The notes below the pieces were generated by a model. The model was not told the DNA's origin. It ran no database searches and saw only the letters and a program-made list of their open reading frames with translations. A DNA stretch of 63,428 bases, the filler included, from Nitrospinota bacterium (GTDB lineage: Bacteria > JAUXIQ01): assembly GCA_030620925.1 (NCBI GenBank). It is 13 parts of 13 records of this genome, joined end to end, with 100 filler letters (N's around TTAATTAATTAA, not from the genome) between each part and the next. Parts side by side here need not be neighbours in the genome. Positions count along the whole stretch, not along the records: positions 26,245 to 34,461 come from JAUXIQ010000071.1; 12 more parts are not named here. The stretch is one strand, 5' to 3'. The translations under genes were made by a program, and so were the position numbers. Positions 12,850 to 47,233 of the stretch are shown piece by piece. Every line of letters starts with the position of its first letter. Within the stretch, counting starts at the first letter, position 1.

Positions 12850-13358
12850 GTGAAAAAAGAGTTAAAACAGTTACTTAACGCCTCACTGAAAAGAGCCGCC
12901 GAAAGAGGACAAATCTCTCCTTCAAACAGGTTGCGGGGCATAATAGACGGTGAGGAAGAAGTAGTTTCTCGCCCCGCTAACACCGATCACGGAGATTATA
13001 CCTCCAACGCGGCCATGATACTGGCGTCTGACCAGGGCAAACCCCCCAGAGCGGTAGCGGAAACGATCCTCAGTAACCTGGAAAACTCCACTGATTTGTT
13101 GAAAGAAGTGGAGATCGCCGGACCGGGGTTTATCAACTTCTTCATCAAGCCCGAGCGCTGGTTGGAATCGCTGAGGCGCATAGTCAAAGAGGGGGAAGAT
13201 TTCGGGTCTTCAACAGCGGGCAAGGGCCTCAAGGTCCAGATCGAGTTCGTTAGCGCCAACCCCACCGGGCCGCTTCACGTGGGACACGGCCGCGGAGCCG
13301 CCGTTGGCGATGCGCTGGCCAACCTGCTTCAGAAGACGGGCTTCGACGTCCATAAAGA
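12850..13358 (+). CDS. argS: Arginine--tRNA ligase, 3'-truncated
   Basis: HGDYTSN, AGPGFINF, EFVSANPTGPLHVGHGRGA. Confidence 0.95.
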
Positions 13359-13458
13359 NNNNNNNNNNNNNNNNNNNNNNNNNNNNNNNNNNNNNNNNNN
13401 NNTTAATTAATTAANNNNNNNNNNNNNNNNNNNNNNNNNNNNNNNNNNNNNNNNNNNN
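13359..13458. other. Artificial contig linker
   Basis: N44-TTAATTAATTAA-N44. Confidence 0.99.
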
Positions 13459-16620: not shown

Positions 16621-16720
16621 NNNNNNNNNNNNNNNNNNNNNNNNNNNNNNNNNNNNNNNNNNNNTTAATTAATTAANNNNNNNNNNNNNNNNNNNNNNNN
16701 NNNNNNNNNNNNNNNNNNNN
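16621..16720. other. Artificial contig linker
   Basis: N44-TTAATTAATTAA-N44. Confidence 0.99.
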
Positions 16721-19785: not shown

Positions 19786-19885
19786 NNNNNNNNNNNNNNN
19801 NNNNNNNNNNNNNNNNNNNNNNNNNNNNNTTAATTAATTAANNNNNNNNNNNNNNNNNNNNNNNNNNNNNNNNNNNNNNNNNNNN
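19786..19885. other. Artificial contig linker
   Basis: N44-TTAATTAATTAA-N44. Confidence 0.99.
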
Positions 19886-22667: not shown

Positions 22668-22767
22668 NNNNNNNNNNNNNNNNNNNNNNNNNNNNNNNNN
22701 NNNNNNNNNNNTTAATTAATTAANNNNNNNNNNNNNNNNNNNNNNNNNNNNNNNNNNNNNNNNNNNN
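22668..22767. other. Artificial contig linker
   Basis: N44-TTAATTAATTAA-N44. Confidence 0.99.
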
Positions 22768-23839
22768 ACACGGTGCAGGTACTGTTGATGCGCACGGTCC
22801 TGGTCGAGTTCAACGACAGGGGGCCAAGCTCGTGCAGACCGATGTTCAGCTCATCGGCGATATATCCCAGGTATCGACCGCAGCCTGCAGCGCAACGGTC
22901 GTTCATCTGAAAACTCTTGACTATTCCGTGTTCGTCCACCTGGATGGCCTTGGTGTCCTGGCCCCCGATATCCAGCACAGTCCTGGTGTCGGGGAACATG
23001 TAGTGTGCTCCCAGACCGTGGCAGAGAATCTCTGAGCGAATCTGGTCTTTCCTGAAGGGAAGCCGCTGACGCCCGTAGCCGGTACCTACGGTGTTCTCCA
23101 AGGGAAGACCCTCGGGGGATATTTCGCCAACATGGTTATCATGAGAAGATTCCCCTGAACCGTTGTCCAGGTTATTCATCAGTTCTTTCACCTTTTCCGC
23201 CGCCCCGTCGCCCGCCAGCTCAGGCTCTCGACTCAAGGTAAATTCCAGGGTGTCTATGACGCGCTCCTGGAAGCCGCTCTCCCTTATCTGGTTCTCCACT
23301 TTTATGATTGACTTGTCGTAGATGCCCATTAACTCCTCGAAACTGGGCCCCTCTGCTCTGCCTTCGCTATCAGCCAATCGCAGGAACTCCGAGCCGACGA
23401 TATCCCTGAAAAACTGAGAACGCTCCATGCTCTCTGTGGAGAAGAGCTGTAAGGAGCGTTCCTCCAGCGCCTGGAAAATGGACTCCAGCGCGGCGCGGGT
23501 TTCATCCAGGCGAGGGCCTGTTTTGGTTCCTTCAGATAGCTGGAAGCAGTTTTCTTTGAGGCTCTTCAGTTTATCCACCTGCTGCAGGTAGCCGAAATCG
23601 GCTTCGAGAGCATCGAAGAGCTCTCCCAAACCGGCGGAAGAACCGTCCTCCGTTCCCGCCTGCCTGCGCAGGAGATAGAAGCGAGCGTTGTTCATGGCCT
23701 CATCGCCCGCCACTCTGGTGGCTACCTTGTAGTTGCTTCGGGTGTTTGTTATGCCCCGGCCGATCATCTGCTCGCGGTCGTCCATGACCACCGCTTTGGT
23801 GGTCGTGGAGCCCAGGTCTATACCAAGATAGTAACCCAT
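22768..23839 (-). CDS. bcrA: Benzoyl-CoA reductase ATPase subunit A (BcrA/BadF), 3'-truncated
   Basis: GIDLGSTTTKAV, GRGITNTRSNY, GTGYGR, SEILCHGLGA, LDIGGQDTK, MNDRCAAGCGRYL. Confidence 0.92.
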
Positions 23840-25122
23840 CAGTGCGCTCCTAATTTGCGTTTCTGGTCTATCATCTGAAGATAAGATTCCAGACGGTTCT
23901 TTATGTTGGCGTGGGAAAAATAGCGGGAGTCTACCAGGTCGGACTCGATGAAACCGCCCGGAATGCCCGTCCTCTGTTCCAGCTCCCTCATCATCAGGAG
24001 CTGCCCGGCCGAGAAGGAGTTGCAGCTCTTGATGGAATTGATTATGAACCCGTCAGCGCTGTATTCGTTTATATATTTCTCGATGAGGTTTATCCTCTCG
24101 GGAATGCTCAGGTTGGTGTATACGCCCAGACAGTACCGGGCCAGGGACTCCAGCGGCTTATCCGGATCGTGCCGGAAACCCAGATCGTATACTCCGCCCA
24201 CTTTTGTGTAGGTGGAGACGACGGGGACGGCACCTTCGTCGTAGAACATCTTCCAGAAATCCCTGAAACTGGTCCAGTTGGGGGGACCTTCCACCACCAG
24301 GCGGTATTTTTCCAGGGCCAGCATGCCTTCGGGCGTCGTGGGCCCCTCTTTCCTTTCTATCCTGCCCTCTATCTCACGGCGAAGCTCCTGATAGTATTCG
24401 ACGCACTCTCTGGTGCCCCTGAACGCGGTGAATATGGGGCCTATGTAATAGACGCCCGCGAAGTAGCCGTCTATGGGCGAGGGGATGTTCTTCCCGGCTT
24501 CCAGGGCATACACGAAATCTTCCTCAGCCTCGGCGGATCGGGCCAGGTATTCTCTGAGTTTCCCCTCGTCGTACTTGTTCCCGGAAACTCTCTCCAACAG
24601 CGGAATGACTTCCCGCTCCATCTGGCCCACCATATATTCCACCATCTGCGTAGTGATGTGTCCGTCACCCTGATAAGGGGTGTGCAGCATGGCCACGGGA
24701 GCCTCGTAAAGATTGCCCAGGTTCTCGAACCACTTCATGAAGGTGAAGCACCCCGTGTAGCTCAACAGGAGCAGGTCGGGCGGAGGCACCTTTTCGCCTG
24801 TGGGACCCTCGTTACCGGCGAGCATCATCCCGATGTCGCACTTCACGTAGGTGCAAACGTCCTCGGAGTGGCCGATCTTTTCTGATTCACGGATGAACTC
24901 GTCCGACCTCTTGCGCATGCCCGACTGGAGGGCGTTGATCTCGGGGTAGACGGGTATCATGCCCATGGAGAGGATGAGTTCGGTAAGGTTCCCGGGGACA
25001 AAGGTATAGACCACCTTCTTCCCTTCCTGTCCGGCGCAGCTCAGTCGTTGGAAATAATCCCCCAGCATCTCTTTCTGTTTAACCATACTGGGTTCTTTCT
25101 GTACGTCTTGCCCGGTGCTCAT
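23839..25122 (-). CDS. bcrB: Benzoyl-CoA reductase subunit B (BcrB/BadE)
   Basis: YTFVPGNLTEL, EINALQSGMRK, HSEDVCTYVK, YTGCFTFMKWFE, NSIKSCNSFSAGQ. Confidence 0.92.
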   Translation of the reverse strand: MSTGQDVQKEPSMVKQKEMLGDYFQRLSCAGQEGKKVVYTFVPGNLTELILSMGMIPVYPEINALQSGMRKRSDEFIRESEKIGHSEDVCTYVKCDIGMMLAGNEGPTGEKVPPPDLLLLSYTGCFTFMKWFENLGNLYEAPVAMLHTPYQGDGHITTQMVEYMVGQMEREVIPLLERVSGNKYDEGKLREYLARSAEAEEDFVYALEAGKNIPSPIDGYFAGVYYIGPIFTAFRGTRECVEYYQELRREIEGRIERKEGPTTPEGMLALEKYRLVVEGPPNWTSFRDFWKMFYDEGAVPVVSTYTKVGGVYDLGFRHDPDKPLESLARYCLGVYTNLSIPERINLIEKYINEYSADGFIINSIKSCNSFSAGQLLMMRELEQRTGIPGGFIESDLVDSRYFSHANIKNRLESYLQMIDQKRKLGAH

Positions 25123-26144
25123 GTTGCGCTCCAGAGTTTGATGGAATCTGAGAAGGTGCCCGTCTGCTCCCGGATGACCTGGAACTGCCCCAGGTTCTCG
25201 GCGTACTGAAAGCCGGTATGGGGGATGCCTTCCTCATCGAGGGTCTTGATGAATTCCGGCCGGTCGAGCAGCGTGGGGTCGCAGAAACTTGGGCAGGCGA
25301 AGATAACACCGTCCGCACGGCGGTGGTGCACGGTCTCCAACAGCAGCTTCCCCTTGGGATTCCCCGCTTCATATTTAGCGGAGGAATATGTGCTGTTCTC
25401 AATGAAGGCACCGGCCAGGGCGGATATGGGGTCTCCTTCAGTATCAACGTCCTGGAGTAGCCAGCGATGGCCCAGCATGAAATCATCATCCACTATATAG
25501 CAGCCTGCATTCTCCAACGTCTTGATAAGGCCCAGGGGAGGCTGTTCGCAGAAGGCGCCCACCAGCACCACCCGCACGTTATCCATCTCCTTGCGGTCCA
25601 TGCCTTCGATCCCTTCCAGATAATCCTCCAGGAGGGCGTTGTGGTCTTCGACGCTCAGGATGTTGCCTGCCCTGGCCAATAGATAGGTTTCGTAAGTAGG
25701 CACCAGCCAGGGCTTTTGGCTGCGCAGGTCGTACAGCGTGTTCATCAGGCGCCGGTTTACGTTGTATACTTCGATGGCGGCGCGCATGGAGTCGTCGCTT
25801 ATTGCGCCGCCGCCCATTTTCTCCAAATCTTCCTTGAAGCTGTGCAGCTCCTTGATGTAAAACTCGCCGCCCACAGCGGGGTCGAAATTCTGTGGAAAAT
25901 CAAAGTACTTGGCATACTTGCCGGGGAACATCACCTGCCACATCCCGGAAAGGTTGCGGATGACATCGCAGATGGAGGGGAAGAGCATTCCGTCCAGGCA
26001 GTCGAGCCTGCCTGCCAGCCCCAACTCGATCACGCTGCGAGGGATATGACAGATATAGGACTGGTAATAGGCGTCCCCTTTTATTATCTCCACCAGGTCT
26101 CCGCCGCCCATGACGCCCACGGGAAGCATGCCCCCGGCATGGAT
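25119..26144 (-). CDS. bcrC: Benzoyl-CoA reductase subunit C (BcrC/BadD), 5'-truncated
   Basis: GDAYYQSYICHIPRS, FPSICDVIRNLSGMW, FCEQPP, PSFCDP, EQTGTFSDSIKLW. Confidence 0.92.
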   Translation of the reverse strand: MHAGGMLPVGVMGGGDLVEIIKGDAYYQSYICHIPRSVIELGLAGRLDCLDGMLFPSICDVIRNLSGMWQVMFPGKYAKYFDFPQNFDPAVGGEFYIKELHSFKEDLEKMGGGAISDDSMRAAIEVYNVNRRLMNTLYDLRSQKPWLVPTYETYLLARAGNILSVEDHNALLEDYLEGIEGMDRKEMDNVRVVLVGAFCEQPPLGLIKTLENAGCYIVDDDFMLGHRWLLQDVDTEGDPISALAGAFIENSTYSSAKYEAGNPKGKLLLETVHHRRADGVIFACPSFCDPTLLDRPEFIKTLDEEGIPHTGFQYAENLGQFQVIREQTGTFSDSIKLWSAT

Positions 26145-26244
26145 NNNNNNNNNNNNNNNNNNNNNNNNNNNNNNNNNNNNNNNNNNNNTTAATTAATTAA
26201 NNNNNNNNNNNNNNNNNNNNNNNNNNNNNNNNNNNNNNNNNNNN
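26145..26244. other. Artificial contig linker
   Basis: N44-TTAATTAATTAA-N44. Confidence 0.99.
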
Positions 26245-26376
26245 GTTGGACAGGTTTGACCTTTGTATGTCCCGGTGGTTGGACAGGTTTGACCTTTGTA
26301 TGTCCCGGTGGTTGGACAGGTTTAGCCTTTGCGTGTCCCGGTGGTTGGGCAGGTTTGACCACTGCGTGTCCTAGCG
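26245..26376. repeat. 33-bp coding tandem repeat, at least 4 copies
   Basis: GTTGGACAGGTTTGACCTTTGTATGTCCCGGTG identical at 26245 and 26278, diverged at 26311 and 26344. The contig breaks inside the array. Confidence 0.9.
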
Positions 26377-26509
26377 GTTGGACAACTTTCGGATGTGGGT
26401 TCCGGCGTGCAAATATGCCTCCTCTTGTGACAGTACACGATGTGAGGGTGAAGATAAAAAGCAGGCAACTCAACAAAATCAACTGCTTTGTCATTCGGAG
26501 GCGGATCAT
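26245..26509 (-). CDS. Pro/His-rich repeat lipoprotein, 3'-truncated, paralogue of 27172..27612
   Basis: Signal with LTS-C lipobox nearly identical to the neighbouring paralogue, then 11-aa repeats VQPPGHTKVKP. Confidence 0.75.
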
Positions 26510-26607
26510 CTCGATTCTCCTTAGAGTTGAATTAATATTTTTGCATGGCTTTTCGCTTTAGCTTATTAAAATCGAAGATAAATGCTGGAGTCATAGCTCA
26601 TAATGTA

Positions 26608-26634
26608 GTATCGGAACGCTCTTAACTTTCTTGA
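26608..26634 (-). promoter_or_regulatory. Sigma28(FliA)-like promoter, copy 1
   Basis: Minus strand TCAAG-14nt-TCCGATAC, conserved upstream of both lipoprotein paralogues. Confidence 0.4.
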
Positions 26635-26833
26635 TAGGTTTTATAACACCCTCGAAATGAGTATCTCCAATGCATGTTTACATTTACTGATATACGCTGG
26701 AATAGTGGAATTTCTTCCATAGAGCACTTTGAAAAAGAGGCGTGTCTGCAATAATTCTGGCTGATTGTCCGGGGAGTGTTTGACCAACGTCGCGCCTGTT
26801 CCGCGTTCCGCGGGATTGTCCAAGGGTTTTTTT

Positions 26834-26950
26834 GTAGAGACAATTCATGAATTGTCTCTACAAGTGGTTGTACTTTAACATGTTGCTCTGGTTACTAGAG
26901 TCTCCCTCCCTTGACGGGAGGGTGATCAAGGGCGACCGCCAGTCGCCCCT
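26834..26950 (+). repeat. Composite repeat, left copy (inverted partner at 30929..31069)
   Basis: Perfect palindrome GTAGAGACAATTCATGAATTGTCTCTAC, shared non-palindromic spacer, CCCTCCC hairpin, then GGGCGACCGCCAGTCGCCCCT. Confidence 0.85.
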
Positions 26951-27105
26951 GCCCTGGCTCTTGTAGGATCGGCTTCCAGCCGCGATCCAAATCCGGATAC
27001 CCACCCTTAAAAGTGTGGGTATGTATCTATCGAGCTCAAGAGTGGCGGGCGAGCTTGTTGGCGAAGATGCTTATCAGCTCGCCGAGCATGATGCAATCCA
27101 TAATT

Positions 27106-27137
27106 AAAAAGGCAGGGCCATTTCGGCCCTGCCTTTT
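27106..27137 (-). terminator. Intrinsic terminator of the 27172..27612 gene
   Basis: AAAAAGGCAGGGCC-ATTTC-GGCCCTGCCTTTT. Confidence 0.8.
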
Positions 27138-27171
27138 GGATATTTCTTTTCGGTGTCGATTGTCGTTCAGA

Positions 27172-27612
27172 CTATTTTCTCTTCTTTTTCTTGCCCTTTT
27201 TCTTGAGCTGACCCGGGGGGTATTTGGTCTTGTGGTTTTTGAAATGGGTGTACGGCTTTTCGGTTTCCAGCTCGAGGCTTACGCGGCTCCCCAGGTTTGC
27301 CCTTAAGTTCTGCGGCAGGGAAACGGAGACCAGCCAGTTATCCCCTTTAAGGTAAAAGTATACCTTTCTCGTTACATCGTAGTAAACGAAGGCGGAAGGA
27401 TAGTAGTAATAGCGATGTTTCGCCCTTCGTCCGTAGGCTTTGGCGTGGGGCGGCGGGCCCGGTTTGGTATGGCCGGGCGGTGGAGCGACTCTGGGTTTCG
27501 GCCGACTGCCTATGTATACGCCTCCGCCTGTGGCGGTACATGATGTGAGGGTGAAGATGAAAAGTAGACTACTCAACAAAATCAATTGCTTTGTCCTTCG
27601 GGGGCGGATCAT
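27172..27612 (-). CDS. Basic Pro/Tyr-rich lipoprotein (PPPHAxAxG...YYYYP...PPGQxKK type)
   Basis: LTS-C lipobox, PPPHAKAYGRRAKHRYYYYP, YPPGQLKKK. AAGGAG RBS. Confidence 0.8.
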   Translation of the reverse strand: MIRPRRTKQLILLSSLLFIFTLTSCTATGGGVYIGSRPKPRVAPPPGHTKPGPPPHAKAYGRRAKHRYYYYPSAFVYYDVTRKVYFYLKGDNWLVSVSLPQNLRANLGSRVSLELETEKPYTHFKNHKTKYPPGQLKKKGKKKKRK

Positions 27613-27710
27613 CTCGTTTCTCCTTAAAGTTGAATTAATATTTTTTCATGCCTTTTTGTTTCCGGCTATTTTATTCAAGATAGATGGCATAAGCCGTCAC
27701 TTATAATTTC

Positions 27711-27738
27711 GTATCGGGAGCGGCATCGACTTTCTTGA
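27711..27738 (-). promoter_or_regulatory. Sigma28(FliA)-like promoter, copy 2
   Basis: Minus strand TCAAG-15nt-CCCGATAC. Confidence 0.4.
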
Positions 27739-27937
27739 GGAGTTTTATACCATATCCGGAATGAGCATCTCCATAAATATTATAGACGTTCAACTGGTGA
27801 AATTTCTTTAACAGAATACTTTAAAATCGCTGCGCTCATGCTATAATTCTGGCTGATTGTCCAGGGGGAAGTTCATCTGCTGTGGTATGGCAACGGCTGA
27901 AAAGCTTCATCGAATATCACGTTAAGGGAAGGGAAAG

Positions 27938-30139
27938 ATGATTGAGAGAAATTCTCCACAGGGGGAGGTCGAGATAATCAACACCGGCTGATCGCACGAC
28001 TGCGGAGGGCGGTGCGTCCTCAGGGTGCATATTAGAGACGGAGTAATCGAGCGCATTGAAACCGATGCCGACGACGAGGAGCAGTTTCGGGCCTGTCTGC
28101 GGGGCCGCTCCTACCGGCAGCGGCTCTACCATCGCGACAGGCTCATCTACCCCTTGCGCCGCACGGGAGAGCGGGGCGAGGGCAAGTTCGAGCGCATCTC
28201 CTGGGATGAAGCCCTGGGCGCCATCGCCTCGGAGTTGAAGCGGGTAAAAGAGACTTATGGCAACCAGTCCATCTTCTACATAGGTTATTCCGGCGGGCAC
28301 GGCCAGCTCCACGGCATGCGCGCGGCTTACCGCCTGCTCAACAAGTTCGGCGGCTGCACTAAAACCTGGGGCGGCGCATCGCATGAAGGGGGCATCTTCG
28401 CTTCCATGGCTACCTACGGCACCTTGAGCACGGGCAACACCCGCGACGACCTGCCCAACTCAAAGCTCATCATCATGTGGGGGTGGAACCCGGCGGAGAC
28501 CATCTGGGACACCAACACCTCCCTCCGTCTCGCAGAAGCCAAAGAGAAAGGGACGCGCATAGTTTCCGTAGACCCCAGGCTCACCTCTTCCACGGCCACT
28601 TTCGCCCATAAGTGGATACCCATAAAACCCTGCACCGATACGGCGGCCCTCATCGCCATGACCTACGTAATAATAGATGGAGGTCTCTACGATGAGAAGT
28701 TCCTCGATCGATACACTGTGGGCTTCGATAGATACAGGGCCTACGTCATGGGCGAGGAGGACGGCCTGCCCAAAACCCCCCGCTGGGCGGAGGAAATCTG
28801 CGGCGTGCCCGCCGGTACATTCGAGCAGCTGGCTCGAGATTACGCAACCGCCAAACCAGCGGCGTTAATAGCCGGCTGGGGACCCGGGCGCACCGCATAC
28901 GGCGAGCAGTACCACCGGGCGGCCATGGTCCTGGCGGCCATGACCGGCAACATAGGTATCCACGGCGGGAACGCCGCCGGCTTCGAGCGCAGCTACGGCA
29001 GCCGCAACATGCACGGTTTCTCGGCGGGCAAGAACCCGCTGGAAGTGGACGGCCCGGTGCGTAAAGACGCCCTCATGCTACGCGGAGGGACGACCTCAAC
29101 GGCGGTTCGTGTGCACGTATCCAGAATCTGGGATGCCATGCTTAAGGGCCGAAGCGGGGGCTATCCGGCGGACTACAAGCTCCTCTATGTAACCAACGCC
29201 AACCCCCTTAACCAGTTCCCGCATACCAACAAGGGCGTGGAAGCGATCAGGAAGATGGAATTCGTGGTGGTACACGAGCAGTTCATGACCGCCACCGCAA
29301 GGTATGCCGACATCCTCTTGCCGGTGAACACCATCATGGAACGCAACGACATCGCCCAGCCCTGGCTCTCGGCTCCTTACTATATATATCTGAACAAGGT
29401 GGTGGAATCCGTGGGGGAATCCAAGACCGATTTTCAGATTTCCTCGGAGCTGGCCCCTCACCTGGGAGTGGACGATTACAGCGACCTGGACGAGGAGGGC
29501 TGGCTCAGGAAATCGGTTGAAAGTTCGGAGGATATCGAGGACTACGATGAGTTTAAAAAAGCGGGTAAACATGTCGTCAAACTTCCCGAACCCTACGTCT
29601 CTTTCGAGGCCCAGATAGAGGACCCGGAGAAAAATCCGTTTTCCACCCCTTCGGGCAAGATAGAGATATACTCCGAGCTGCTGGCGGATATGGAGAACCC
29701 CCTCATACCTCCCGTGCCCAAGTATATAGAGCCGGAGGAGGGGCCTGATGATCCCCTCCGGGGGGAGTTCCCATTGCAGCTCATCACCACCCATTTCAGA
29801 CGGCGCGTTCATTCCGTCTTCGAAAACGTCCCCTGGCTGGCGGAGCTTGAGCCGGACGCGATGTGGATCAATCCAGTCGACGCCGAGCCCAGGGGGATAA
29901 AGGAAGGCGACCCGGTGAAGATATTCAACCAGCGGGGTACGGTGGTGATGCCGGCAAGGGTCACCGAGAGGATAATCCCCGGCGTGGTGAACATACACGA
30001 GGGCGCCTGGTTCAGCCCGGACAGCGAGGGGGTGGACAGGGGCGGCTGCGCAAACGTGCTCACCGCTGATAAACACTCCCCCGGCGGAGCATTCATCAGC
30101 AATACCAGCCTGGTGCAGGTAGAGAAGGAAGAAACTTGA
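27938..30139 (+). CDS. Molybdopterin oxidoreductase catalytic subunit (DmsA-like) with in-frame TGA at codon 18, candidate selenoprotein
   Basis: ATG 27938 after AAGGGAAGGGAAAG is in frame with ORF 28025 and gives MIERNSPQGEVEIINTG-[TGA]-SHDCGGRC...RACLRG. Also WG.NP.ET, VDPR, TATARYADILLP, TPSGKIEIYSE. No Tat signal. Confidence 0.9.
27989..28022 (+). promoter_or_regulatory. Candidate bacterial SECIS hairpin after the in-frame UGA
   Basis: UGA-U-CGCAC-GAC-UGC-GGAGG-GCG-GUGCG-UCC-UCA: a stem with a bulge and a G-led apical loop, folded by eye only. Confidence 0.45.
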
Positions 30140-30230
30140 CTCGGGGAGCGGGCCCCCTTTCTTCCCGGAAAAACGTATTAGATATTAAAGGCTTTTACCG
30201 CAGCGGTTTACATGATAAGGAGATTTCACT

Positions 30231-30767
30231 ATGCAGATGACCTTCCACTTCAACCAGCAGCGATGCACTTCTTGTTACACCTGCGTGGTGGCCTGCAAAG
30301 ACTGGTTCGATATCCCGCCGGGACCCCGCACGCGGCGCTGGGTGAGCACACTGGAAGAGGGCAAGTTCCCCGACGTGGAGGTCAGCCACCTCTCGCTTTC
30401 CTGTCTCCACTGCGAAAACCCTTCCTGCATCAGCGTCTGCCCGTCAGGCGCCATTAAGAAGAGGGAAAGCGACGGCATCGTTTACGCCGATAGAGATGAA
30501 TGCCTCGCCGACTGCGGCCTCTGCAAGGAAGCCTGTCCCTACGATGCCCCCCGCTTCGATGAAGAGGGCGACACAACAATCGAGTTGTGCGATTTCTGCG
30601 TGGAGCGTATAGATGAAGGTAAAAAGCCCATCTGCGTGGAAGCCTGCCCCATGCGCGCCCTGGATTGCGGGCCCAGGGAAGAGATGGAGTCGGAATACGG
30701 CGAAAAGAAAGATGCCAGAGGCTTCTCCTACGTGGAGGAGAACCGCCCGTCCATAGTATTCAAGTAG
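30231..30767 (+). CDS. Four-cluster iron-sulfur subunit (DmsB-like)
   Basis: CTSCYTCVVAC, CLHCENPSCISVCP, CLADCGLCKEACP, CDFC...PICVEACP. AAGGAG RBS. Confidence 0.93.
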   Translation: MQMTFHFNQQRCTSCYTCVVACKDWFDIPPGPRTRRWVSTLEEGKFPDVEVSHLSLSCLHCENPSCISVCPSGAIKKRESDGIVYADRDECLADCGLCKEACPYDAPRFDEEGDTTIELCDFCVERIDEGKKPICVEACPMRALDCGPREEMESEYGEKKDARGFSYVEENRPSIVFK

Positions 30768-31160
30768 GGGCGTATTGCCATGCGCCCCAATAGGGCGGGT
30801 TTGATCCCGCCACATGCGGGGTTGCCCTTTCATTCCAGAATCGTAGGGGCAGGGCTTGCCTTGCCCAGGGCGCAGTCTAACGGCACGCTGTGCCCCCCTA
30901 CGCGAAATTGCTGGGGGCGTTGGGTGTCGTAGGGGCGATCCCGCCTTCCGCGGGACTCGCCCTTAATCACCCTCCCTTTTTCCCTCCCATCGAGGGAGGG
31001 AGACTCCAGTAACCTGAGTAACATGTAAAGTACAACCACTCGTAGAGACAATTCATGAATTGTCTCTACTTACGCGATGGTCTTTTGTTAGCGGCACGGC
31101 TCGTCGTATCGCTACACCGCGTCCTGTCATTCTGAATCCCGCCACACGCGGGGTCGCCCT
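30764..31160. repeat. Dense REP cluster including the right copy of the composite repeat (30929..31069) and three 17-bp inserts (30805, 30939, 31137)
   Basis: Several GTAGGGGC...GCCC hairpins, and a perfect 28-bp palindrome at 31042..31069. Confidence 0.85.
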
Positions 31161-31266
31161 TTTTTCGCTTCAGGGCGTTTTCTGTTGAAAAGTAAGAGCG
31201 TAATCTGTATAAATAGACACTGTCCCTGCTATGGATTCCTCAATATAAAAGGAGAGGAGTGAAGAA

Positions 31267-32478
31267 ATGGATTTCAATTTGTCGCCTGAAGAAGAGGCAT
31301 TCAGACAAGAGTTTGTACCCTGGCTGGAGGGTGTTATTGCCGAAAAAGGCAAGATACCAACATTCAAAGATGCAGAGGCCCTCGATGAGAGAGTGGCCTG
31401 GTACAGGGAGATGCAGAAGAAACTGTTCGATGCAGGCTATGCGGGCATCACCTGGCCCAAGGAATACGGTGGCCGGGGGGGCACCCTCATCGAAAGCTTC
31501 ATATTGGACGAGGAGATTCAGAAGCGGGCTGCTGTTGAGAATTTCAACGGCATCGGGTTCGGGATGGCGGGCGGCGTTATTCTTGCCTTCGGCACGGATG
31601 AGCAGAAAGATCGCTATATCCCGGCCATGCTTAACGGGAGCGAGATATGGTGTCAGGGTTTTTCAGAGCCCAACGCCGGCTCGGACCTCGCTGCGCTCAG
31701 CACTCGCGCCGTGAAAGACGGGGACGATTACGTCATCAACGGCCAGAAAGTTTGGACCAGCATGGCGCAAATGGCCGACCAGTGCATCCTGGTGGTGAGG
31801 ACGGACCCCGACGTGCCCAAGCACAAAGGGTTGAGCTTTTTCATAATCGACATGAAAACCCCGGGCATAGACGTCAGGCCGCTGGTCCAGATAACCGGCG
31901 ACGCCGAGTTCAATGAAGTCTATTTCGATGATATGCGCGTTCCCCGGACTCAGATGCTGGGCGAGGAGGGGGACGGCTGGAAGATTTCCATCGCCACCCT
32001 CATGTTCGAGCGTTACGCAGTGAGCCAGTACGGGAGCTTCAGGCGCAGCATCGACGGGCTTTTCGAGTTAGCCAAAAATGTGACACGCAACGGGCGGCCC
32101 GCCATCGAGGACCCGGTCATCCGCCAGAAATTGGGGCAGTTTCACATCGAAGTGGAGATTCTTAAGCACAACACCATGAGGAGTCGCAGCAAACTGTTGA
32201 AGGGCGAGGTGCCCGGTCCGGAGGGTTCCATAGAAAAGCTTTACTGGAGCGAAATGAACAAGGCCATGCAGGAGTTCGCCATGGAGCTGGAAGGCCCCTA
32301 TCACCAGCTTATGAGCGGTTCTAAATGGGCGCTGCAGGATGGAATGTACCAGTTCGCCTTCCTCAGATCGCGTGGGAACACTATAGAAGCGGGAACCTCC
32401 GAGATACAGAAGAACATCATCGGAGAAAGAGTTTTGGGCCTGCCCAAAGACGCCGCCAGAGCTGCTGTTAAAAAGTAG
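31267..32478 (+). CDS. Acyl-CoA dehydrogenase family protein, first of a pair
   Basis: WCQGFSEPNAGSDLA, NGQKVWTS, FNEVYFDD, TIEAGTSEIQKNII. Confidence 0.94.
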   Translation: MDFNLSPEEEAFRQEFVPWLEGVIAEKGKIPTFKDAEALDERVAWYREMQKKLFDAGYAGITWPKEYGGRGGTLIESFILDEEIQKRAAVENFNGIGFGMAGGVILAFGTDEQKDRYIPAMLNGSEIWCQGFSEPNAGSDLAALSTRAVKDGDDYVINGQKVWTSMAQMADQCILVVRTDPDVPKHKGLSFFIIDMKTPGIDVRPLVQITGDAEFNEVYFDDMRVPRTQMLGEEGDGWKISIATLMFERYAVSQYGSFRRSIDGLFELAKNVTRNGRPAIEDPVIRQKLGQFHIEVEILKHNTMRSRSKLLKGEVPGPEGSIEKLYWSEMNKAMQEFAMELEGPYHQLMSGSKWALQDGMYQFAFLRSRGNTIEAGTSEIQKNIIGERVLGLPKDAARAAVKK

Positions 32479-32509
32479 CCAGGGATATTTGGAATAGGGA
32501 GAGCTGACA

Positions 32510-33658
32510 ATGGTAGATACGGCTTTTACAGAAGAACAAGATATGCTCAAGCGCTCAGCGCGCAACTTTGTTGAGAACGAGTGTCCGCCCGAGTACGTGC
32601 GTGAAATGTGGGAAAACGATGAGGGCATCACCCAGGAGGTCTGGAACAAGATGGCCGAGCTGGGCTGGATGGGCCTGCTGGTTCCGGAAGAGTATGACGG
32701 CATCGGCATGTCCTTCCAGGACCTGGCGGTGGTTTTTGAAGAAATGGGCCGGGTGCCGATGCCTGGCCCCTTCTTCTCATCGGTGGTCCTGGGCGGCGAG
32801 ACCATAAGACTGGCGGGCACCGAAGAACAGAAAAAGGCTGTCCTGCCCGGTATTGCCATGGGCGAAACGAGAGCCACTTTAGCCCTCATGGAGTGCGACC
32901 CGCTGCTCTCGCCGGCGGGAATCGAATCCGTTAAGGCCGAACCCGCCGCCGACGGCTACGCCATCAACGGCATCAAGCTCTTCGTGCCCGATGCCCACAC
33001 AGCGGATTATATCATCTGCGCCGCAAGGACGGATGAGGGGGCGGATCCCGCTAAAGGGATATCGCTGTTTCTGGTCGATTCCAAGACAAGCGGCCTGTCC
33101 ATCGAGCTTCTCAAGACGATGGACGGGGGCAGGAAGCAGTGTGAGGTGAATTTTGAGAACGTGGCCGTTCCCGAAAGCGCTCTCATGGGGCAGAAGGGAG
33201 AGGCATGGCCCATTATCTCCAAGGTGGCGGATATCGCCAACGCCGCCCTCTGTATGGAGATGGTGGGCGGGATGGAAAAATCTCTGGAGCTGACCGTGGA
33301 CTATGCCAAGACTCGCATCGCCTTCGATCAGCCCATCGGGAGCTACCAGGCCATAAAGCATATGTGCGCCGATATGATGCTCATTACTGAGAGCGCCAAG
33401 TCCGTCGCTTATTACGCCGCCTGGGCGGTGAGCGAAGATACGCCCGATGCACCAGAGGCCGTTTCCATGGCCAAAGCATACTGTAGTGACACTTACCGCA
33501 AAGCCACGGGCGATTGCATTCAGATTATGGGCGGTATCGGATTCACCTGGGAACACGATGCGCATCTCTACTTCAAGCGAGCAAGATGCAACGAGCACCT
33601 CTTCGGAGACGCCGCCTTTCACAAGGACCGACTGGTTACGATGAAAACGAGCGCCTGA
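32510..33658 (+). CDS. Acyl-CoA dehydrogenase family protein, second of a pair
   Basis: MAELGWMGL, GIKLFVPD, FDQPIGSYQAIKH, GGIGFTWEHDAHLYFKRA. Confidence 0.94.
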   Translation: MVDTAFTEEQDMLKRSARNFVENECPPEYVREMWENDEGITQEVWNKMAELGWMGLLVPEEYDGIGMSFQDLAVVFEEMGRVPMPGPFFSSVVLGGETIRLAGTEEQKKAVLPGIAMGETRATLALMECDPLLSPAGIESVKAEPAADGYAINGIKLFVPDAHTADYIICAARTDEGADPAKGISLFLVDSKTSGLSIELLKTMDGGRKQCEVNFENVAVPESALMGQKGEAWPIISKVADIANAALCMEMVGGMEKSLELTVDYAKTRIAFDQPIGSYQAIKHMCADMMLITESAKSVAYYAAWAVSEDTPDAPEAVSMAKAYCSDTYRKATGDCIQIMGGIGFTWEHDAHLYFKRARCNEHLFGDAAFHKDRLVTMKTSA

Positions 33659-33776
33659 AACTTTCTGACTATAGCTGCACCTTGTTATGGGGGGAGCCAT
33701 CCTTTTTTATGAAGAAGGAGCTCCCCCCAAGCATTTTGTCGGCCCGTGAAGAGCTCGGGGGCCATCTGCTTTCGCT

Positions 33777-34054
33777 GTAGGGGCGGTCCCGCGGTATGCG
33801 GGATTAAACCCGCCCTGTAATGATGATTATATGTAAAGGGCAGGTTTGAAACCTGCCCCTACGAGATGGGTATATGCGTTCATTGGTTTTCGTGCGTGGA
33901 AGGTGAAAAGGAACGGGGTGTAGGAGCGCCTTCCAGGCGCGATCCCGCGTTTCGGGGGATTTGTAGAGGCGAATCTCGTATTCGCCCAGGGCGATCACAA
34001 GGATCGCCCCTACTTGTAGAGACAATTCATGTCCCGCCCTGCTGGACGTCTCTA
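33777..34054. repeat. REP cluster with inserts at 33787, 33943 and a degenerate one at 34032
   Basis: GTAGGGGCGG-insert-TTAAACCCGCCCT; AGGGCAGGTTTGAAACCTGCCCCTAC; GTAGGAGCGCCTTCCAGGCGCGA; GGGCGATCACAAGGATCGCCCCTAC. Confidence 0.85.
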
Positions 34055-34090
34055 AGTGCTCTGAGGGACAGCCAGGGTGTTTTGAAGCTG

Positions 34091-34459
34091 TTATGCGGTC
34101 CGGTTGTTCAGGGAGACGATCTGAGCGATAACCTCTTTGACTCTGACCAGCTCTTCCTCGGTGTTAAAAAAGTTTACCGACAGCCGCACCACTTTGGGGT
34201 CGGGGACCCAGCGGCCGGCGATGTTCCCCCGACTCCAGAGCTCTTTTACCACTTCTTCCGCGTCCATCCCCGTTACGCTGAAAGAGACGAGGCCCGATTG
34301 CGCTCTGCCCCCCTCAGCCTCAGGTGAGTAAAGGGTGATTCCGTCCATGCCTGAGATGTGATTAAGCATCACCGCGGCATTTTTCCTGATGGCGGCCTCT
34401 ATTTCGCCCATTCCGAGGCTGGTCAAGAAATCCATGGCCGCTCCCAGGCCAGTCAAAAG
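34091..34459 (-). CDS. Class V PLP enzyme (cysteine desulfurase/selenocysteine lyase-like), C-terminal fragment
   Basis: GLGAAMDFL..LG...SGLVSF...VRLSVNFFNTEEE. Confidence 0.8.
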   Translation of the reverse strand, partial: LLTGLGAAMDFLTSLGMGEIEAAIRKNAAVMLNHISGMDGITLYSPEAEGGRAQSGLVSFSVTGMDAEEVVKELWSRGNIAGRWVPDPKVVRLSVNFFNTEEELVRVKEVIAQIVSLNNRTA

Positions 34460-34461
34460 CA

Positions 34462-34561
34462 NNNNNNNNNNNNNNNNNNNNNNNNNNNNNNNNNNNNNNN
34501 NNNNNTTAATTAATTAANNNNNNNNNNNNNNNNNNNNNNNNNNNNNNNNNNNNNNNNNNNN
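34462..34561. other. Artificial contig linker
   Basis: N44-TTAATTAATTAA-N44. Confidence 0.99.
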
Positions 34562-37909: not shown

Positions 37910-38472
37910 ATGAAGATGAACATAGGCCGGTTTCTCGCCAGGAGAGCGCACCTGAACCCCGATAAGCTGGGCGTGGTTTGCGATGATAAGAGACTGACCT
38001 TCCGAGAGCTTAACGATCGCGCCAACCGTGTTGCCAATGCCCTCGTAGGCATGGGTGTGCAGAAGGGTGAACGGGTGGGCGTGCTGATGATGAACTCAGT
38101 CGAGTATTACGAAACATATTTCGGCATAGCCAAAACCGGCGCGGTAATGGTTCCCCTCAACTGGCGGTTGGTGGCCTCTGAGCTGGAATATATCGTAAAA
38201 GACAGCGGAGCCTTGTACCTCGTCTACGGCTCGGAGTTCGCCGGAACGGTGGAGGAGATGACGCCCAATTTAGAGCTTAAAAGCTATGTTCATCAGGGAG
38301 TGAAAACGCCCACCGGACATCTCGACTATGAAGACTGGCTGGCTAAATCCTCTAAGGATGAGCCGGAGATCGAGGCCGAAGGGGACGACGTTCAGTTCAT
38401 CATGTACACCTCGGGCACTACCGGGCTCCCCAAAGGGGCGGTCATCTCACATCGAAACATGTTCATGGCCGC
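37910..38472 (+). CDS. Long-chain acyl-CoA synthetase, 3'-truncated
   Basis: PLNWRL, MYTSGTTGLPKG AMP-binding motif. Confidence 0.92.
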
Positions 38473-38572
38473 NNNNNNNNNNNNNNNNNNNNNNNNNNNN
38501 NNNNNNNNNNNNNNNNTTAATTAATTAANNNNNNNNNNNNNNNNNNNNNNNNNNNNNNNNNNNNNNNNNNNN
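38473..38572. other. Artificial contig linker
   Basis: N44-TTAATTAATTAA-N44. Confidence 0.99.
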
Positions 38573-40689: not shown

Positions 40690-41841
40690 TTATTTGAACA
40701 ATTTTTTCAAGCTTTCTACGTCGGTTTTCACTGGGGTGGTAAGGCCCAGTTTTTTTCGCTGCGATTCGTTGGGCCGCACCAGCACGCCGGTCTTCTTGAA
40801 AGAGTCTATACCTTTTTTGATGGCGTCCGGGTGGAGACCTTTATCTATGGAGAGGTTTTTGAGTTTACCGAAAGTCTCCCACAGTGAAGACCTCTGGGGA
40901 CACATTTCGTAGCAGGCGTTGCACTCGAGACATTTCCAGAACTTGCCCTCTTCGATAACCTCATCAAGCCGTCCCTCCAGTAATTTACCTATTATCTCGT
41001 AGGGGACGTAATCCGGGTCGCTCTTTGCCACGGGGCATACGTCGAAACTGCACGCCCGGCACTCGTTGCAGCGCTCCAGCACCTCCAGGTCGAAATGTTC
41101 CTCGATGATTGCGAACCTCTGAATCGCCCGATCCCATTTTTCGAAGAAAGAGGAGGTATCGGATCGGTGCATGGTGACACCCAACTCCTCCGCTGAGAAA
41201 CCCAGGGCCAGCCCGATAAGCTCCGAGAGATAGATGATGGGCACCGCCACGTCGATGCCTTGACGCTGGGCGATGTTCTGTCCGTAGTCGAACTGGATGA
41301 AGCAGGCCGGACAGCAGACCACCAGGGCGTCGGCTCCCAGGTCCTGCACCTCCTTGAGCTTTTTCCACATCATCTCCATGGAAATTTCTTCTTCGTCTAC
41401 AGCGCCCAGGGCCTGGCCGCAGCAATCCATCTTGGAGGGGTACTGAAGGCTTTTTGCTTTCAGGGCTTCCACTAATTTGTCCATCTTAACGGGCAGGATG
41501 GGGTTATCGAAATGGACACCGCTGCTGGGCCGCATCATGTGGCAGCCGTAATGCAGGGCGAGAGTGAGTCCCCGTAACGATTTCGTTGATTTTTCGGAGA
41601 TGGTCCTGGGGCTGACCTCGTCGTGCAACACTTCCAGGAATTGTTTAACTTTCGCCGCACCATTGTATTCCAGGCCAAGCGTTTCCAGCTTGGTTACGGT
41701 CTGTTCCCGCTCCCGGGGGTTCTGGTTGAGCTGTGCGGCGGCGTTATTGAGGGAGGAGTTGCACCCCGTGCAGGGGGTGATGATGTCCAGCCCCTCTTTT
41801 TCTGCTATGCTCATGTTTCGGGCCGCGGTTAGGAGCCACAG
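40690..41841 (-). CDS. hdrB: Heterodisulfide reductase subunit B-like protein with a fused C-terminal HdrC-like 2x[4Fe-4S] domain, 5'-truncated
   Basis: AARN, TPCTGC, HYGCH..RP, DCCG, CPACFIQFD, ELIGLALG (HdrB), then CNECRACSFDVCP and WKCLECNACYEMCP (HdrC-like). Confidence 0.88.
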   Translation of the reverse strand: MWLLTAARNMSIAEKEGLDIITPCTGCNSSLNNAAAQLNQNPREREQTVTKLETLGLEYNGAAKVKQFLEVLHDEVSPRTISEKSTKSLRGLTLALHYGCHMMRPSSGVHFDNPILPVKMDKLVEALKAKSLQYPSKMDCCGQALGAVDEEEISMEMMWKKLKEVQDLGADALVVCCPACFIQFDYGQNIAQRQGIDVAVPIIYLSELIGLALGFSAEELGVTMHRSDTSSFFEKWDRAIQRFAIIEEHFDLEVLERCNECRACSFDVCPVAKSDPDYVPYEIIGKLLEGRLDEVIEEGKFWKCLECNACYEMCPQRSSLWETFGKLKNLSIDKGLHPDAIKKGIDSFKKTGVLVRPNESQRKKLGLTTPVKTDVESLKKLFK

Positions 41842-41842
41842 C

Positions 41843-41942
41843 NNNNNNNNNNNNNNNNNNNNNNNNNNNNNNNNNNNNNNNNNNNNTTAATTAATTAANN
41901 NNNNNNNNNNNNNNNNNNNNNNNNNNNNNNNNNNNNNNNNNN
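41843..41942. other. Artificial contig linker
   Basis: N44-TTAATTAATTAA-N44. Confidence 0.99.
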
Positions 41943-43643: not shown

Positions 43644-44483
43644 TTATGGGCTTCGCCAGAATAGAAAATTGTGCTGCCGATACATGAAAAGGTCGACCCC
43701 CAGGTAGGTTACCATCACCGCCAGGAACCCTATCACCGCCACCAGGGCGGCCTTTCGACCCCGCCACCCCCTGTGGTAGCGAGTATGGATGTAGGCGGCG
43801 AAAATGAGCCAGGTTATGAGCGACCAGGTCTCCTTCGGGTCCCACGACCAGAACCGGCCCCATACGTATTCCGCCCAGATGCCGCCGCTGATTATCCCCA
43901 CCGTTAGAAAGCAAAATCCGACTATTGCGGCCCTGCGCGCCACGTCGTCGAGCAGCTTTTCGCCTGCCTGGCTTTCAGCGGCGGGAGCCTCGTCGCTTCC
44001 CTTTCTGATCAGGTAAAGAAGGGAGGCCCCGAAAGTGGCTGCAAACGCCGAGTAGGCGACGAGAGCGGTAAGAATATGGATTTTGAGCCAGAAACCCCTG
44101 AATATGGGAATAACCGGCTCTACCGCCCTGGAGAGAGTCCAGGCATAGACGAGAATGGCCAGGGCTACGGGAAGAAGGGCAACGCCCAGGTCTTTGCGCC
44201 GGGAGAGCCGCTCGAAAATTATATGGGCCAGGACGACTCCGGCTGAAAAGAGGGACAGGAATTCGAAAGCGTTGAAAATGGGGAGGTGCCCCGCCCTGTA
44301 TCCCCTCACGCTTAAAGAGACGACGTGAAACGCCCAGGCAATTAAAGTGATAACCGGAGCGGCGCTCCGGTTCGCTTCTCCGTCTGACCGCAGCGAAAAC
44401 AGGTAGATTAACCAGGCGGCCACATACCCCCCCGTGGCTACGCCCATGGTAAGTAATTCAATCTTTGCCGCTGTGATGGGCAT
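43644..44483 (-). CDS. resC: System II cytochrome c synthase subunit ResC (CcsA/CcsB)
   Basis: GHLP, WLKIH, GGIWAEYVWGRFWSWDPKETW (WWD domain), YIH, TYLGV. Confidence 0.93.
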   Translation of the reverse strand: MPITAAKIELLTMGVATGGYVAAWLIYLFSLRSDGEANRSAAPVITLIAWAFHVVSLSVRGYRAGHLPIFNAFEFLSLFSAGVVLAHIIFERLSRRKDLGVALLPVALAILVYAWTLSRAVEPVIPIFRGFWLKIHILTALVAYSAFAATFGASLLYLIRKGSDEAPAAESQAGEKLLDDVARRAAIVGFCFLTVGIISGGIWAEYVWGRFWSWDPKETWSLITWLIFAAYIHTRYHRGWRGRKAALVAVIGFLAVMVTYLGVDLFMYRQHNFLFWRSP

Positions 44484-44496
44484 CTACGATTTACTC

Positions 44497-45570
44497 CTAT
44501 TGAAGGCCGGTCGAATTCCCTGAGCTTTGAGAGGTGCGCCGGTAGAAGGTGAAAACCAGTCCGGCCAGCAGGGCTATGAAACCCGTGATGAAAAAGGGTT
44601 TTTCGGGCCTTACGTATACGTGAATCCCTGTATAGGGGCGGATGGACTCGATGGCCATGGTAAACGCGCCTACTTGCAGGGGTTCCTTATCCGTGGCGAA
44701 ACCCATGGAATCAACGGTGCCGTCACTTTGTAGTTTGAATATTTCCGTTGTAGCGCGGGGGGAGTTTCCCTCGTTTTCCCGTGCAGAACCCCAATCGTAA
44801 TTTAAGCTGTGGGCCATATATCTCTGCTGGCCGCCGTAAAAGCTGATCAACGGCGGCGCCCAGGGCCAGATGGGGACAACCTTCTCCCGGCCATTGAGGT
44901 CCGTTATCACAAGATCGAAGACCCAACCGATGTCTTTGTGCGCCGGTAGAAGAGTAACACCTTTAGCGATTATGGGTTGGCCGGGCGCGATTGCAGCTTT
45001 CATAAAAGGATTGCCGTGGTGGAAAAGGGTTATCATGCTTTCCTGCTTTTCGGGGAATCGGGCGTCGGGTCCCCAGTGTTTGAAGGTCTCCTCCGGGTAA
45101 TATTTCAGCTTAAACTCATCGAGCTTTATGACGAAGGGGAGGGGGGGCAAGACGGTTACATCACCCTCTACGAGACGGGTATAATACCGAAAACCTGAGA
45201 ACCCGCTGTAGACCATTCCTCCCAGGATAGTGAGTATCCCCAGGTGGGCAAGGAGGATGCCCAGGGCTGCTCCTCTGCCTCGCTGCTGATAGACCCTGGG
45301 AAAGCGCTTAATGGCGACGGTGAGCAAACTGAAGCCCAGGAGCCCTAAAAGTATAATGTACCACCAGGAATGGAATATATCGTTGAGCTGAAGATAACGG
45401 TTGAGGCTTGCTATCCATTCGGGTATGTCTGAAGCCAGCTTGACGTTGCGTCCCTGGGGAATGAGGCTTCCTATAATGGAGGCCGCGGCTATGGCTATCA
45501 GCAAAGGTATGGCGAACTTGACCGAGGCGATGAAACTGATTAAATTTTTTGATACGTTTCGCCAGGCCAT
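44497..45570 (-). CDS. resB: System II cytochrome c biogenesis protein ResB
   Basis: SVKFAIPLL...IGSLIPQ, DIFHSWWY, LAHLG, C-terminal transmembrane segment. Adjacent to resC. Confidence 0.87.
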   Translation of the reverse strand: MAWRNVSKNLISFIASVKFAIPLLIAIAAASIIGSLIPQGRNVKLASDIPEWIASLNRYLQLNDIFHSWWYIILLGLLGFSLLTVAIKRFPRVYQQRGRGAALGILLAHLGILTILGGMVYSGFSGFRYYTRLVEGDVTVLPPLPFVIKLDEFKLKYYPEETFKHWGPDARFPEKQESMITLFHHGNPFMKAAIAPGQPIIAKGVTLLPAHKDIGWVFDLVITDLNGREKVVPIWPWAPPLISFYGGQQRYMAHSLNYDWGSARENEGNSPRATTEIFKLQSDGTVDSMGFATDKEPLQVGAFTMAIESIRPYTGIHVYVRPEKPFFITGFIALLAGLVFTFYRRTSQSSGNSTGLQ

Positions 45571-45573
45571 TTT

Positions 45574-46065: not shown

Positions 46066-46099
46066 CGCCTGCCCTATAAGGCGTTACTCGACATTTCTT

Positions 46100-47218: not shown

Positions 47219-47233
47219 GATTCCATCCTCTTA

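Follow-up and report, generated by a model that had tools for sequence, protein, structure and literature searches.

The DmsA-like gene and its frame

The subject of this report is a gene for a DmsA-like molybdoenzyme subunit carrying an in-frame TGA codon, found in a Nitrospinota bacterium (assembly GCA_030620925.1) within a stretch of 63,428 nucleotides (filler between joined records included; hereafter the window, to which all positions refer). The gene lies in the part contributed by the record JAUXIQ010000071.1 (positions 26,245 to 34,461) and is accompanied by a gene for a DmsB-like ferredoxin subunit. As argued below, the TGA probably specifies selenocysteine (Sec, U) at the position of the first ligand of FS0, the N-terminal [4Fe-4S] cluster, which of all clusters lies nearest to the molybdenum cofactor. 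The features relevant to this argument are as follows.

27820-27847, + strand: promoter-like site, TTTAAA and TATAAT separated by a 16-nt spacer, with TG (10/12 matches)
27924-27937, + strand: purine-rich ribosome-binding stretch ahead of ATG 27938, read from the sequence
27938-30139, + strand: DmsA-like subunit binding a molybdenum or tungsten bis-pyranopterin guanine dinucleotide (Mo/W-bisPGD) centre, 733 residues including U18 (Pfam, NCBIfam)
27989-27991, + strand: in-frame TGA proposed to encode Sec as residue 18, located where homologues have the first FS0 ligand
28001-28015, + strand: codons of Cys22 (28001-28003) and Cys26 (28013-28015), the second and third FS0 ligands
28005-28021, + strand: 17-nt hairpin resembling a selenocysteine insertion sequence (SECIS), 7-bp stem 28005-28011/28015-28021, loop GUG 28012-28014
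28094-28096, + strand: codon of Cys53, the fourth FS0 ligand
28379-28381, + strand: codon of Ser148 (in GGASHEGG), likely Mo/W ligand by alignment to 1eu1_A
30231-30767, + strand: DmsB-like four-cluster ferredoxin subunit, 178 amino acids (Fer4_11; TIGR02951)

The open reading frame (ORF) called under translation table 11 starts at GTG 28025 and encodes 704 amino acids, with the frame continuing upstream to ATG 27938 and its purine-rich stretch, just as an earlier note on this DNA had described. The extended frame of 733 residues contains a single internal TGA and is terminated by another TGA at 30137-30139. Read with the internal TGA as U, the product begins MIERNSPQGEVEIINTG-U-SHD-C-GGR-C, followed by x26 and then C-LRG. 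The ligand set anticipated in the earlier note is thus recovered as U18, C22, C26 and C53, i.e. the motif U-x3-C-x3-C-x26-C.

The domain architecture is that of the MopB superfamily, with all three Pfam domains scoring above their cut-offs and occurring in the MopB order: PF04879 at residues 15-65, PF00384 (Molybdopterin) at 68-506 and PF01568 (Molydop_binding) at 613-715. Because the first of them (Molybdop_Fe4S4) is matched by residues 15-65, the domain spans the TGA. The best NCBIfam model is dmsA_ynfE (TIGR02166), with a score of 709.7 bits, i.e. below the cut-off of 777.7, and with an alignment starting at profile position 41; the score against TIGR01591 is 273.6 bits. The FS0 motif is preceded by 17 residues devoid of an RR motif and the TIGR02166 alignment opens only at position 41, so a twin-arginine translocation (Tat) leader is absent. 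The partner gene is also intact, as the earlier note had stated, with a TIGR02951 score of 157.7 bits (cut-off 214.1). A Pfam scan of 51 window ORFs revealed no member of the DmsC family.

Comparison with structurally characterized proteins indicates where the two metal sites of the protein would lie. The segment GGASHEGG begins at residue 145, and its Ser148 is aligned with residue 147 of the chain 1eu1_A (Rhodobacter DMSO reductase), a serine that we take to be the Mo ligand; the earlier suggestion that the Mo ligand is probably serine is thus supported. When residues 1-80 were compared with PDB chains by phmmer, U18-x3-C22-x3-C26 and C53 matched the FS0 ligand columns of the NarG chain 3ir5_A, presumably the His49Cys variant of a protein whose native first FS0 ligand is His49. 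With U18 falling on the first-ligand column of NarG and Ser148 on the Mo-ligand column, the predicted Sec is placed at the iron-sulfur site, away from the metal site of the cofactor.

The TGA codon is genuine and inherited

Parts of the stretch occur in 20 public sequencing runs from 12 studies, four of which were compared over 27700-28500. A 376-nt contig from run X3 spans 27835-28209 and keeps the TGA while differing from the window at two sites, T>C 27955 and A>G 27958, both of them third-position synonymous changes (Ser6, Pro7) in the frame opened by ATG 27938. A 187-nt contig from run X6 (27959-28145) also keeps the TGA and exhibits zero differences. The two runs come from different studies, and the depths of the two contigs are low (3.7 and 4.1); contigs of the remaining two runs, X1 and X8, do not reach the TGA site. 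No RNA runs are listed among the public runs containing the stretch.

Independent evidence comes from an orthologue in another genome. The closest of 80 loci from species-representative genomes, L001, belongs to an uncultured Nitrospinota bacterium (genome G001), and its product is 87% identical to the window protein over 575 ungapped codons (88% by tblastn). The TGA recurs there at the corresponding codon, 17 codons after an ATG that itself follows a purine-rich stretch, and the 575 codons contain no other stop. Neighbouring genes are likewise common to the window and G001, at 74-80% nucleotide identity. The TGA is therefore real rather than an assembly error, and it is inherited.

Cysteine predominates at the first-ligand column of homologues

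The residue occupying the column of U18 was classed by a tblastn-anchored script over all 160 homologous loci fetched. Cysteine occurs in 148 of them, including 64 with the C-x3-C and 84 with the C-x4-C spacing, whereas the only TGA is that of L001. Seven loci encode serine, and in the remaining four the N-terminal stretch runs off the locus (one of these, L027, displays C-x4-C). Cys at the homologous column is what Sec/Cys pairs typically show. The alternation of TGA and Cys that the earlier note had proposed to look for is thus present to the extent that a second TGA occurs among Cys-encoding homologues; no further TGA turned up in the 160 loci.

The close full-length relatives P0003, P0004 and P0007 (78-83% identity) have Cys at the column, reading TG/SG-C-SHDCGGRC. 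Three others, P0005, P0006 and P0008 (82-87% identity), are N-terminally truncated gene calls that start just past the motif, a situation compatible with a TGA. The length of P0005 and P0006 is 698 amino acids, that of P0002 is 704, and further truncated protein calls are represented by P0016, P0040, P0073 and P0079. In a phylogenetic tree, P0003-P0008 form together with the window protein and L001 a single clade of eight rows with a support of 100/100, the inner forks of which are unresolved. A scan of metagenomes yielded no relative above 61% identity.

The serine-encoding loci (L016-L020, L116 and L121) read TTS-TFD-C-GGR-C and represent another natural ligand variant. L016-L020 come from bins assigned to Thermodesulfobacteriota, Desulfobacterales, a delta proteobacterium and Promethearchaeota, and L116 and L121 are metagenome contigs.

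Codons flanking the TGA evolve under coding constraint

Comparison of the window with L001 reveals how the region around the TGA has evolved. Codons 11-17, preceding the TGA, comprise four synonymous and one non-synonymous difference (a conservative Ile/Leu exchange), with two codons identical, and the eleven codons from the TGA to GTG 28025 (codons 19-29) comprise four synonymous and no non-synonymous differences, with seven identical. Codons 11-29 taken together thus exhibit eight synonymous and one non-synonymous change and ten identical codons (with the TGA), and nine of the ten base differences fall at third positions. The remainder of the compared region (codons 30-575) has 207 synonymous and 65 non-synonymous differences. 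The first ten codons vary, and do so among the Cys-encoding relatives as well.

No ATG, GTG or TTG occurs in frame between the TGA and GTG 28025, so the segment SHDCGGRC could be translated by read-through only. That the sequence flanking the TGA is constrained as coding sequence on either side implies its translation, and the TGA must therefore be decoded. A general reassignment of TGA as a sense codon does not account for this, since TGA serves as the stop of 17 of the 42 long ORFs of the window (including the DmsA-like gene itself), compared with 15 for TAA and 10 for TAG. When the window was screened, by eye, for other split frames joined by a TGA, no further convincing candidate was found.

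A SECIS-like hairpin downstream of the TGA

The most stable fold of the 31 nucleotides following the UGA has a minimum free energy (MFE) of -14.2 kcal/mol and consists of a 7-bp stem closed by a GUG loop, preceded on the 5' side by a small hairpin. The hairpin at 28005-28021, which folds at -10.2 kcal/mol on its own, begins 13 nt past the UGA in both the window and L001, and the single difference between the two stems turns G-U into A-U, so the pair is kept. This is not the structure proposed in the earlier note, as a hairpin with a GGAGG loop reaches only -9.5 kcal/mol when forced. In E. coli fdhF, a 17-nt upper stem-loop about 11 nt after the UGA suffices, and bSECISearch requires a G early in an apical loop located 16-37 nt from the UGA; the hairpin at 28005-28021 fits this picture.

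The hairpin is specific to the genes with the TGA. All seven stem pairs can form in both of them. At 65 Cys sites that encode the same C-x3-C-GxxC motif (64 loci; rows not de-duplicated) this is never the case, six pairs being possible at two sites, five at four, four at 14, three at 25, and two or fewer at 20. Random synonymous coding of GGRCVL with the codon usage of the window gives the full stem in 1.8% of cases. A hairpin of this kind follows seven of the 1975 TGA trinucleotides on both strands of the window, the one at 27989 being the only case in the reading frame of a gene supported by homology. In G001, three of six TGA sites in recognized selenoprotein families satisfy the same hairpin criterion: the hairpin of selD has the same start (position 17), a 7-bp stem and a loop opening with G, and those of two peroxiredoxin-like genes carry triloops (GUU and GUC) at positions 21-25.

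A TGA at 39763 on the minus strand, antisense to a gene for a major facilitator superfamily transporter, also has a 7-bp hairpin after it, the top of which (CG-GUG-CG) is identical to that of the dmsA-like hairpin. Since the frame containing this TGA is a shadow of a gene supported by Pfam, we regard the hairpin there as due to chance.

Selenocysteine machinery in a related genome

No sel genes occur among the window ORFs scanned with Pfam. Of the machinery that the earlier note had named as worth looking for, the related genome G001 contains adjacent selA (614 bits) and selB (392.9 bits) genes as well as selD (213.4 bits), and a gene for tRNA-Sec was not found. The selD gene (contig C25, locus L170) itself has an in-frame TGA, corresponding to U in GGGUACK. 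In-frame TGA codons were further detected in five of nine AhpC-TSA matches, which represent peroxiredoxin-like proteins with UxxC-type motifs encoded on contigs C55, C340, C152, C2 and C3 (loci L199, L201 and L203-L205). The formate dehydrogenase-like matches of G001 contain no in-frame TGA.

Six Rfam matches to tRNA-Sec were obtained in G001. The one above the cut-off is tRNA-Trp according to ARAGORN, three of the other five proved to be tRNA-Ser, tRNA-Arg and tRNA-Leu, and the remaining two lie on contig C329. No tRNA occurs near the selAB or selD genes of G001.

Extensive use of Sec has been documented in bacteria bearing the same phylum label. In BSepDB (PMC13326102), bins labelled as Nitrospinota (GTDB UBA8248), with 48-54 genes, rank in the top ten of bacterial selenoproteomes by size.

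Interpretation of the TGA and alternative explanations

The evidence presented above converges on the idea put forward in the earlier note that the UGA is decoded as Sec at FS0: the TGA is inherited, the homologous column is occupied by Cys, the flanks on both sides are constrained as coding sequence, the hairpin is confined to the TGA genes, and G001 possesses Sec machinery and many selenoprotein genes. A combination of a Cys/TGA pair with conserved flanks, a TGA orthologue, a SECIS-like hairpin and a Sec-using lineage makes the DmsA-like gene a good candidate by the criteria the field applies to predicted selenoproteins. Judging from these comparative data, we consider it quite probable that UGA 27989 is decoded as Sec, and we favour, as a likely if more demanding proposition, that the Sec so inserted supplies the first ligand of FS0.

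The scenario we envisage is the following. Translation would start at ATG 27938, and the hairpin at 28005-28021, positioned 13 nt past UGA 27989, would recruit SelB with Sec-tRNA(Sec), leading to insertion of Sec as residue 18. U18 would then serve as the first of the four ligands (U18, C22, C26 and C53) of the N-terminal [4Fe-4S] cluster, and FS0 would relay electrons between the DmsB-like subunit and the Ser148-ligated Mo/W-bisPGD centre. The enzyme would be a soluble cytoplasmic oxidoreductase of the DmsAB type, lacking both a Tat leader and a neighbouring DmsC gene. Actual insertion of Sec, its binding to the cluster and any effect on the properties of the latter are points that we infer. 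A further step, which we regard as quite unlikely, would be that the selenolate, instead of simply replacing a thiolate, gives FS0 a labile or unusually tuned iron site, making the cluster catalytic or a redox- or oxygen-sensitive gate for cofactor insertion. Such a role would resemble the FS0-dependent chemistry reported for the Xsr paralogues of DmsA (PMC13524816) and would, if true, be the first case in the MopB superfamily of a natural cluster that has a Sec ligand and acts in catalysis.

Several observations count against this interpretation. The DNA-confirmed TGA carriers are two and belong to one lineage, so the TGA together with the hairpin may be a single inherited event, and the Cys control sites of the hairpin comparison belong to more distant relatives. 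The hairpin criteria were fixed after the hairpin had been seen. Its shuffle z-scores vary with the stretch from +0.64 to -2.4 (-0.9 to -2.4 for the best hairpin-isolating stretches), and conservation of the stem is not significant (third positions changed in one of six hairpin codons compared with eight of 12 flanking codons). A search of 27850-28250 with Rfam at E-values up to 10 yielded two chance-level matches and no SECIS family. The failure to find tRNA-Sec in G001 (six Rfam matches, four of them checked with ARAGORN) is not decisive, since this genome is a fragmented 3.1-Mb bin. Finally, it is from alignment that U18 is deduced to be a ligand of FS0.

If the TGA were instead a true stop, the protein would be made from GTG 28025 and retain only one of the four FS0 ligands; alternatively, the gene would be a recent pseudogene. 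Gene callers did choose the stop (hence the 704 amino acids of P0002 and the 698 of P0005 and P0006), the TorA/DorA branch functions without FS0 according to PMC13524816, and the missing tRNA-Sec would cause no difficulty. This explanation is nevertheless hard to reconcile with the four synonymous and zero non-synonymous differences in the 11 codons from the TGA to GTG, with the four synonymous and one conservative difference in the seven codons before the TGA, and with the presence in both genes of an ATG with a purine-rich stretch 17 codons upstream. Moreover, the nearest GGAGG ends 16 nt ahead of GTG 28025, no other stop or frameshift occurs in the 733 and 575 codons, respectively, and Cys53 is retained along with the rest of the FS0 domain. 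We thus deem a true stop unlikely. The constraint on both sides of the TGA would be explained, with no need for tRNA-Sec, by selenium-free read-through, i.e. decoding by near-cognate tRNA-Trp or tRNA-Cys or low-level suppression, giving rise to a Trp- or Cys-containing protein plus a 17-residue peptide. Here the prevalence of Cys at the column (148 of 160 loci), the restriction of the hairpin to the TGA genes in a register common to the selD hairpin of G001, the occurrence of selA, selB, selD and several other TGA-bearing redox genes in that genome, and the common use of TGA as a true stop in the window all point the other way, leaving such read-through as a decidedly improbable option. As for a sequencing or assembly error, about which the earlier note had cautioned, a single base change from TGC or TGT would indeed produce the same picture, and the supporting contigs have the low depths given above. 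This concern is essentially dispelled by the retention of the TGA in the contigs of X3 and X6, i.e. in runs of two studies, the former contig representing a different strain as evidenced by its two other differences, and in the diverged orthologue L001 from another assembly.

Genomic context of the gene and other features of the window

Upstream of the DmsA-like gene and on the other strand, genes for a BcrAD/BadFG ATPase and two HGD-D proteins occupy 22712-26129, and two acyl-CoA dehydrogenase genes are found downstream. Housekeeping genes of the window include those for aspartyl-tRNA synthetase (AspRS), Era, RecO and ComEC. The promoter-like site at 27820-27847 constitutes weak evidence, as two such sites were found compared with 1.9 expected in shuffles. 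Two antisense ORFs (27917-28384 and 29096-30076) and two small plus-strand ORFs (27013-27306 and 27440-27706) have no Pfam match and were taken as shadow frames.

A 4.1-kb segment comprising a small lipoprotein gene and the dmsA-like and dmsB-like genes is bracketed by an inverted repeat with arms of about 89 nt (26834-26922 and 30982-31069) that are 88-98% complementary. Each arm terminates in a perfect palindrome of 28 nt that recurs at 90-100% identity on many contigs of G001, and the inverted repeat may be a dispersed element akin to repetitive extragenic palindromes (REP) or miniature inverted-repeat transposable elements (MITE). A tandem duplication with copies about 1.1 kb apart (26189-26774 and 27172-27866; 201 nt at 78% and 85 nt at 73% identity) corresponds to two paralogous small lipoprotein genes on the minus strand, with a signal peptide, an LTSC lipobox and no Pfam match, together with their upstream regions. 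The first of these genes contains three 33-nt tandem repeats, and the second copy of the duplication contains the promoter-like site ahead of the dmsA-like gene.

Elsewhere in the window (40690-41814 and 43644-47806, both on the minus strand) a protein with CCG and 4Fe-4S dicluster domains, similar to HdrD/GlpC, is encoded with no in-frame TGA seen, near genes for ResB/CcsA-type cytochrome c biogenesis proteins, an EB_dh haem-subunit-like protein and a multihaem protein; GlpC-like Fe-S oxidoreductases are a selenoprotein family listed in Table 1 of PMC13188914.

The window contains twelve pairs of 44-N runs, with 12 bases between the runs of each pair, at 2864-2963, 6097-6196, 13359-13458, 16621-16720, 19786-19885, 22668-22767, 26145-26244, 34462-34561, 38473-38572, 41843-41942, 47922-48021 and 52797-52896. 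They interrupt the gene for arginyl-tRNA synthetase (ArgRS, 12850-13410), an AMP-binding ORF (37910-38524) and a small lipoprotein ORF (26189-26509), so some apparent truncations are due to masking.

Comparison with known systems

The closest counterparts of the protein are DmsA and YnfE (TIGR02166), catalytic subunits of DMSO/selenate reductases, which it resembles in being matched by this family best and from end to end, in the three MopB Pfam domains, in the N-terminal four-ligand FS0 motif, in the serine at the Mo-ligand column and in the adjacent DmsB-like gene. It differs from them in scoring below the curated cut-off, in lacking the Tat leader, in the absence of a DmsC-like ORF among the window ORFs scanned and in having the first FS0 ligand encoded by TGA. 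With NarG it shares, column for column, the pattern first ligand-x3-C-x3-C (here U18-x3-C22-x3-C26), although NarG, a membrane-bound nitrate reductase of type II, has Asp as the Mo ligand. The first FS0 ligand of wild-type NarG is His, which means that nature varies this ligand; indeed, the position is already known as His in NarG and Cys in DmsA, and is Ser in seven of the 160 loci analysed here.

The selenoproteins FdhA/FdhH (formate dehydrogenase alpha) and FwdB belong to the same MopB superfamily (as shown by the TIGR01591 score given above and by 1aa6_A being among the PDB matches of our protein), and their genes, too, have an in-frame UGA immediately followed by a hairpin within the coding sequence. 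However, Sec of FdhA and FwdB is the Mo/W ligand in a UHxP motif, as stated in Table 1 of PMC13188914, whereas here Ser148 occupies the Mo column and the TGA lies about 130 residues upstream, at the first Fe-S ligand. Placement of Sec at a cluster-binding Cys position has precedents in HdrA, VhuD/FrhD, HgcB, 2Fe-2S binding proteins and the Fe-S cluster domain protein NF005503, all listed in that table. They belong to other families, none of them molybdopterin subunits, and according to PMC13188914 their ligation by Sec is mostly predicted too. FDH3 beta was named as a new selenoprotein by deep-Sep (PMC12013277). The Salmonella Xsr sulfate reductases, paralogues of DmsA, are of interest because FS0 and residues near its first two Cys matter for their catalysis (PMC13524816); they differ in being periplasmic and membrane-bound, with an all-Cys FS0 and no selenium, so the sole link is that FS0 chemistry can matter.

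Table 1 of a 2026 review lists 119 prokaryotic selenoprotein families or subfamilies, of which, as far as its available text goes, only FdhA and FwdB are members of MopB (PMC13188914). Among the papers listed by literature searches on selenium in DmsA-type enzymes and at FS0, none describes Sec at FS0; the BSepDB family list and the supplements of surveys may hold an entry. What is already known, then, is Sec in the MopB superfamily and at Fe-S motifs elsewhere; what would be new is Sec at FS0, here as a prediction. Since gene callers truncate these genes (P0002, probably also P0005 and P0006), FS0-containing enzymes of Sec-rich sediment bacteria become annotated without FS0. If our reading is correct, the natural presence of Sec at FS0 would provide a ready-made probe of how a ligand affects the potential, spin state and assembly of the cluster, and it would constitute a second, chemically different use of selenium in the superfamily that gave the first bacterial selenoprotein.

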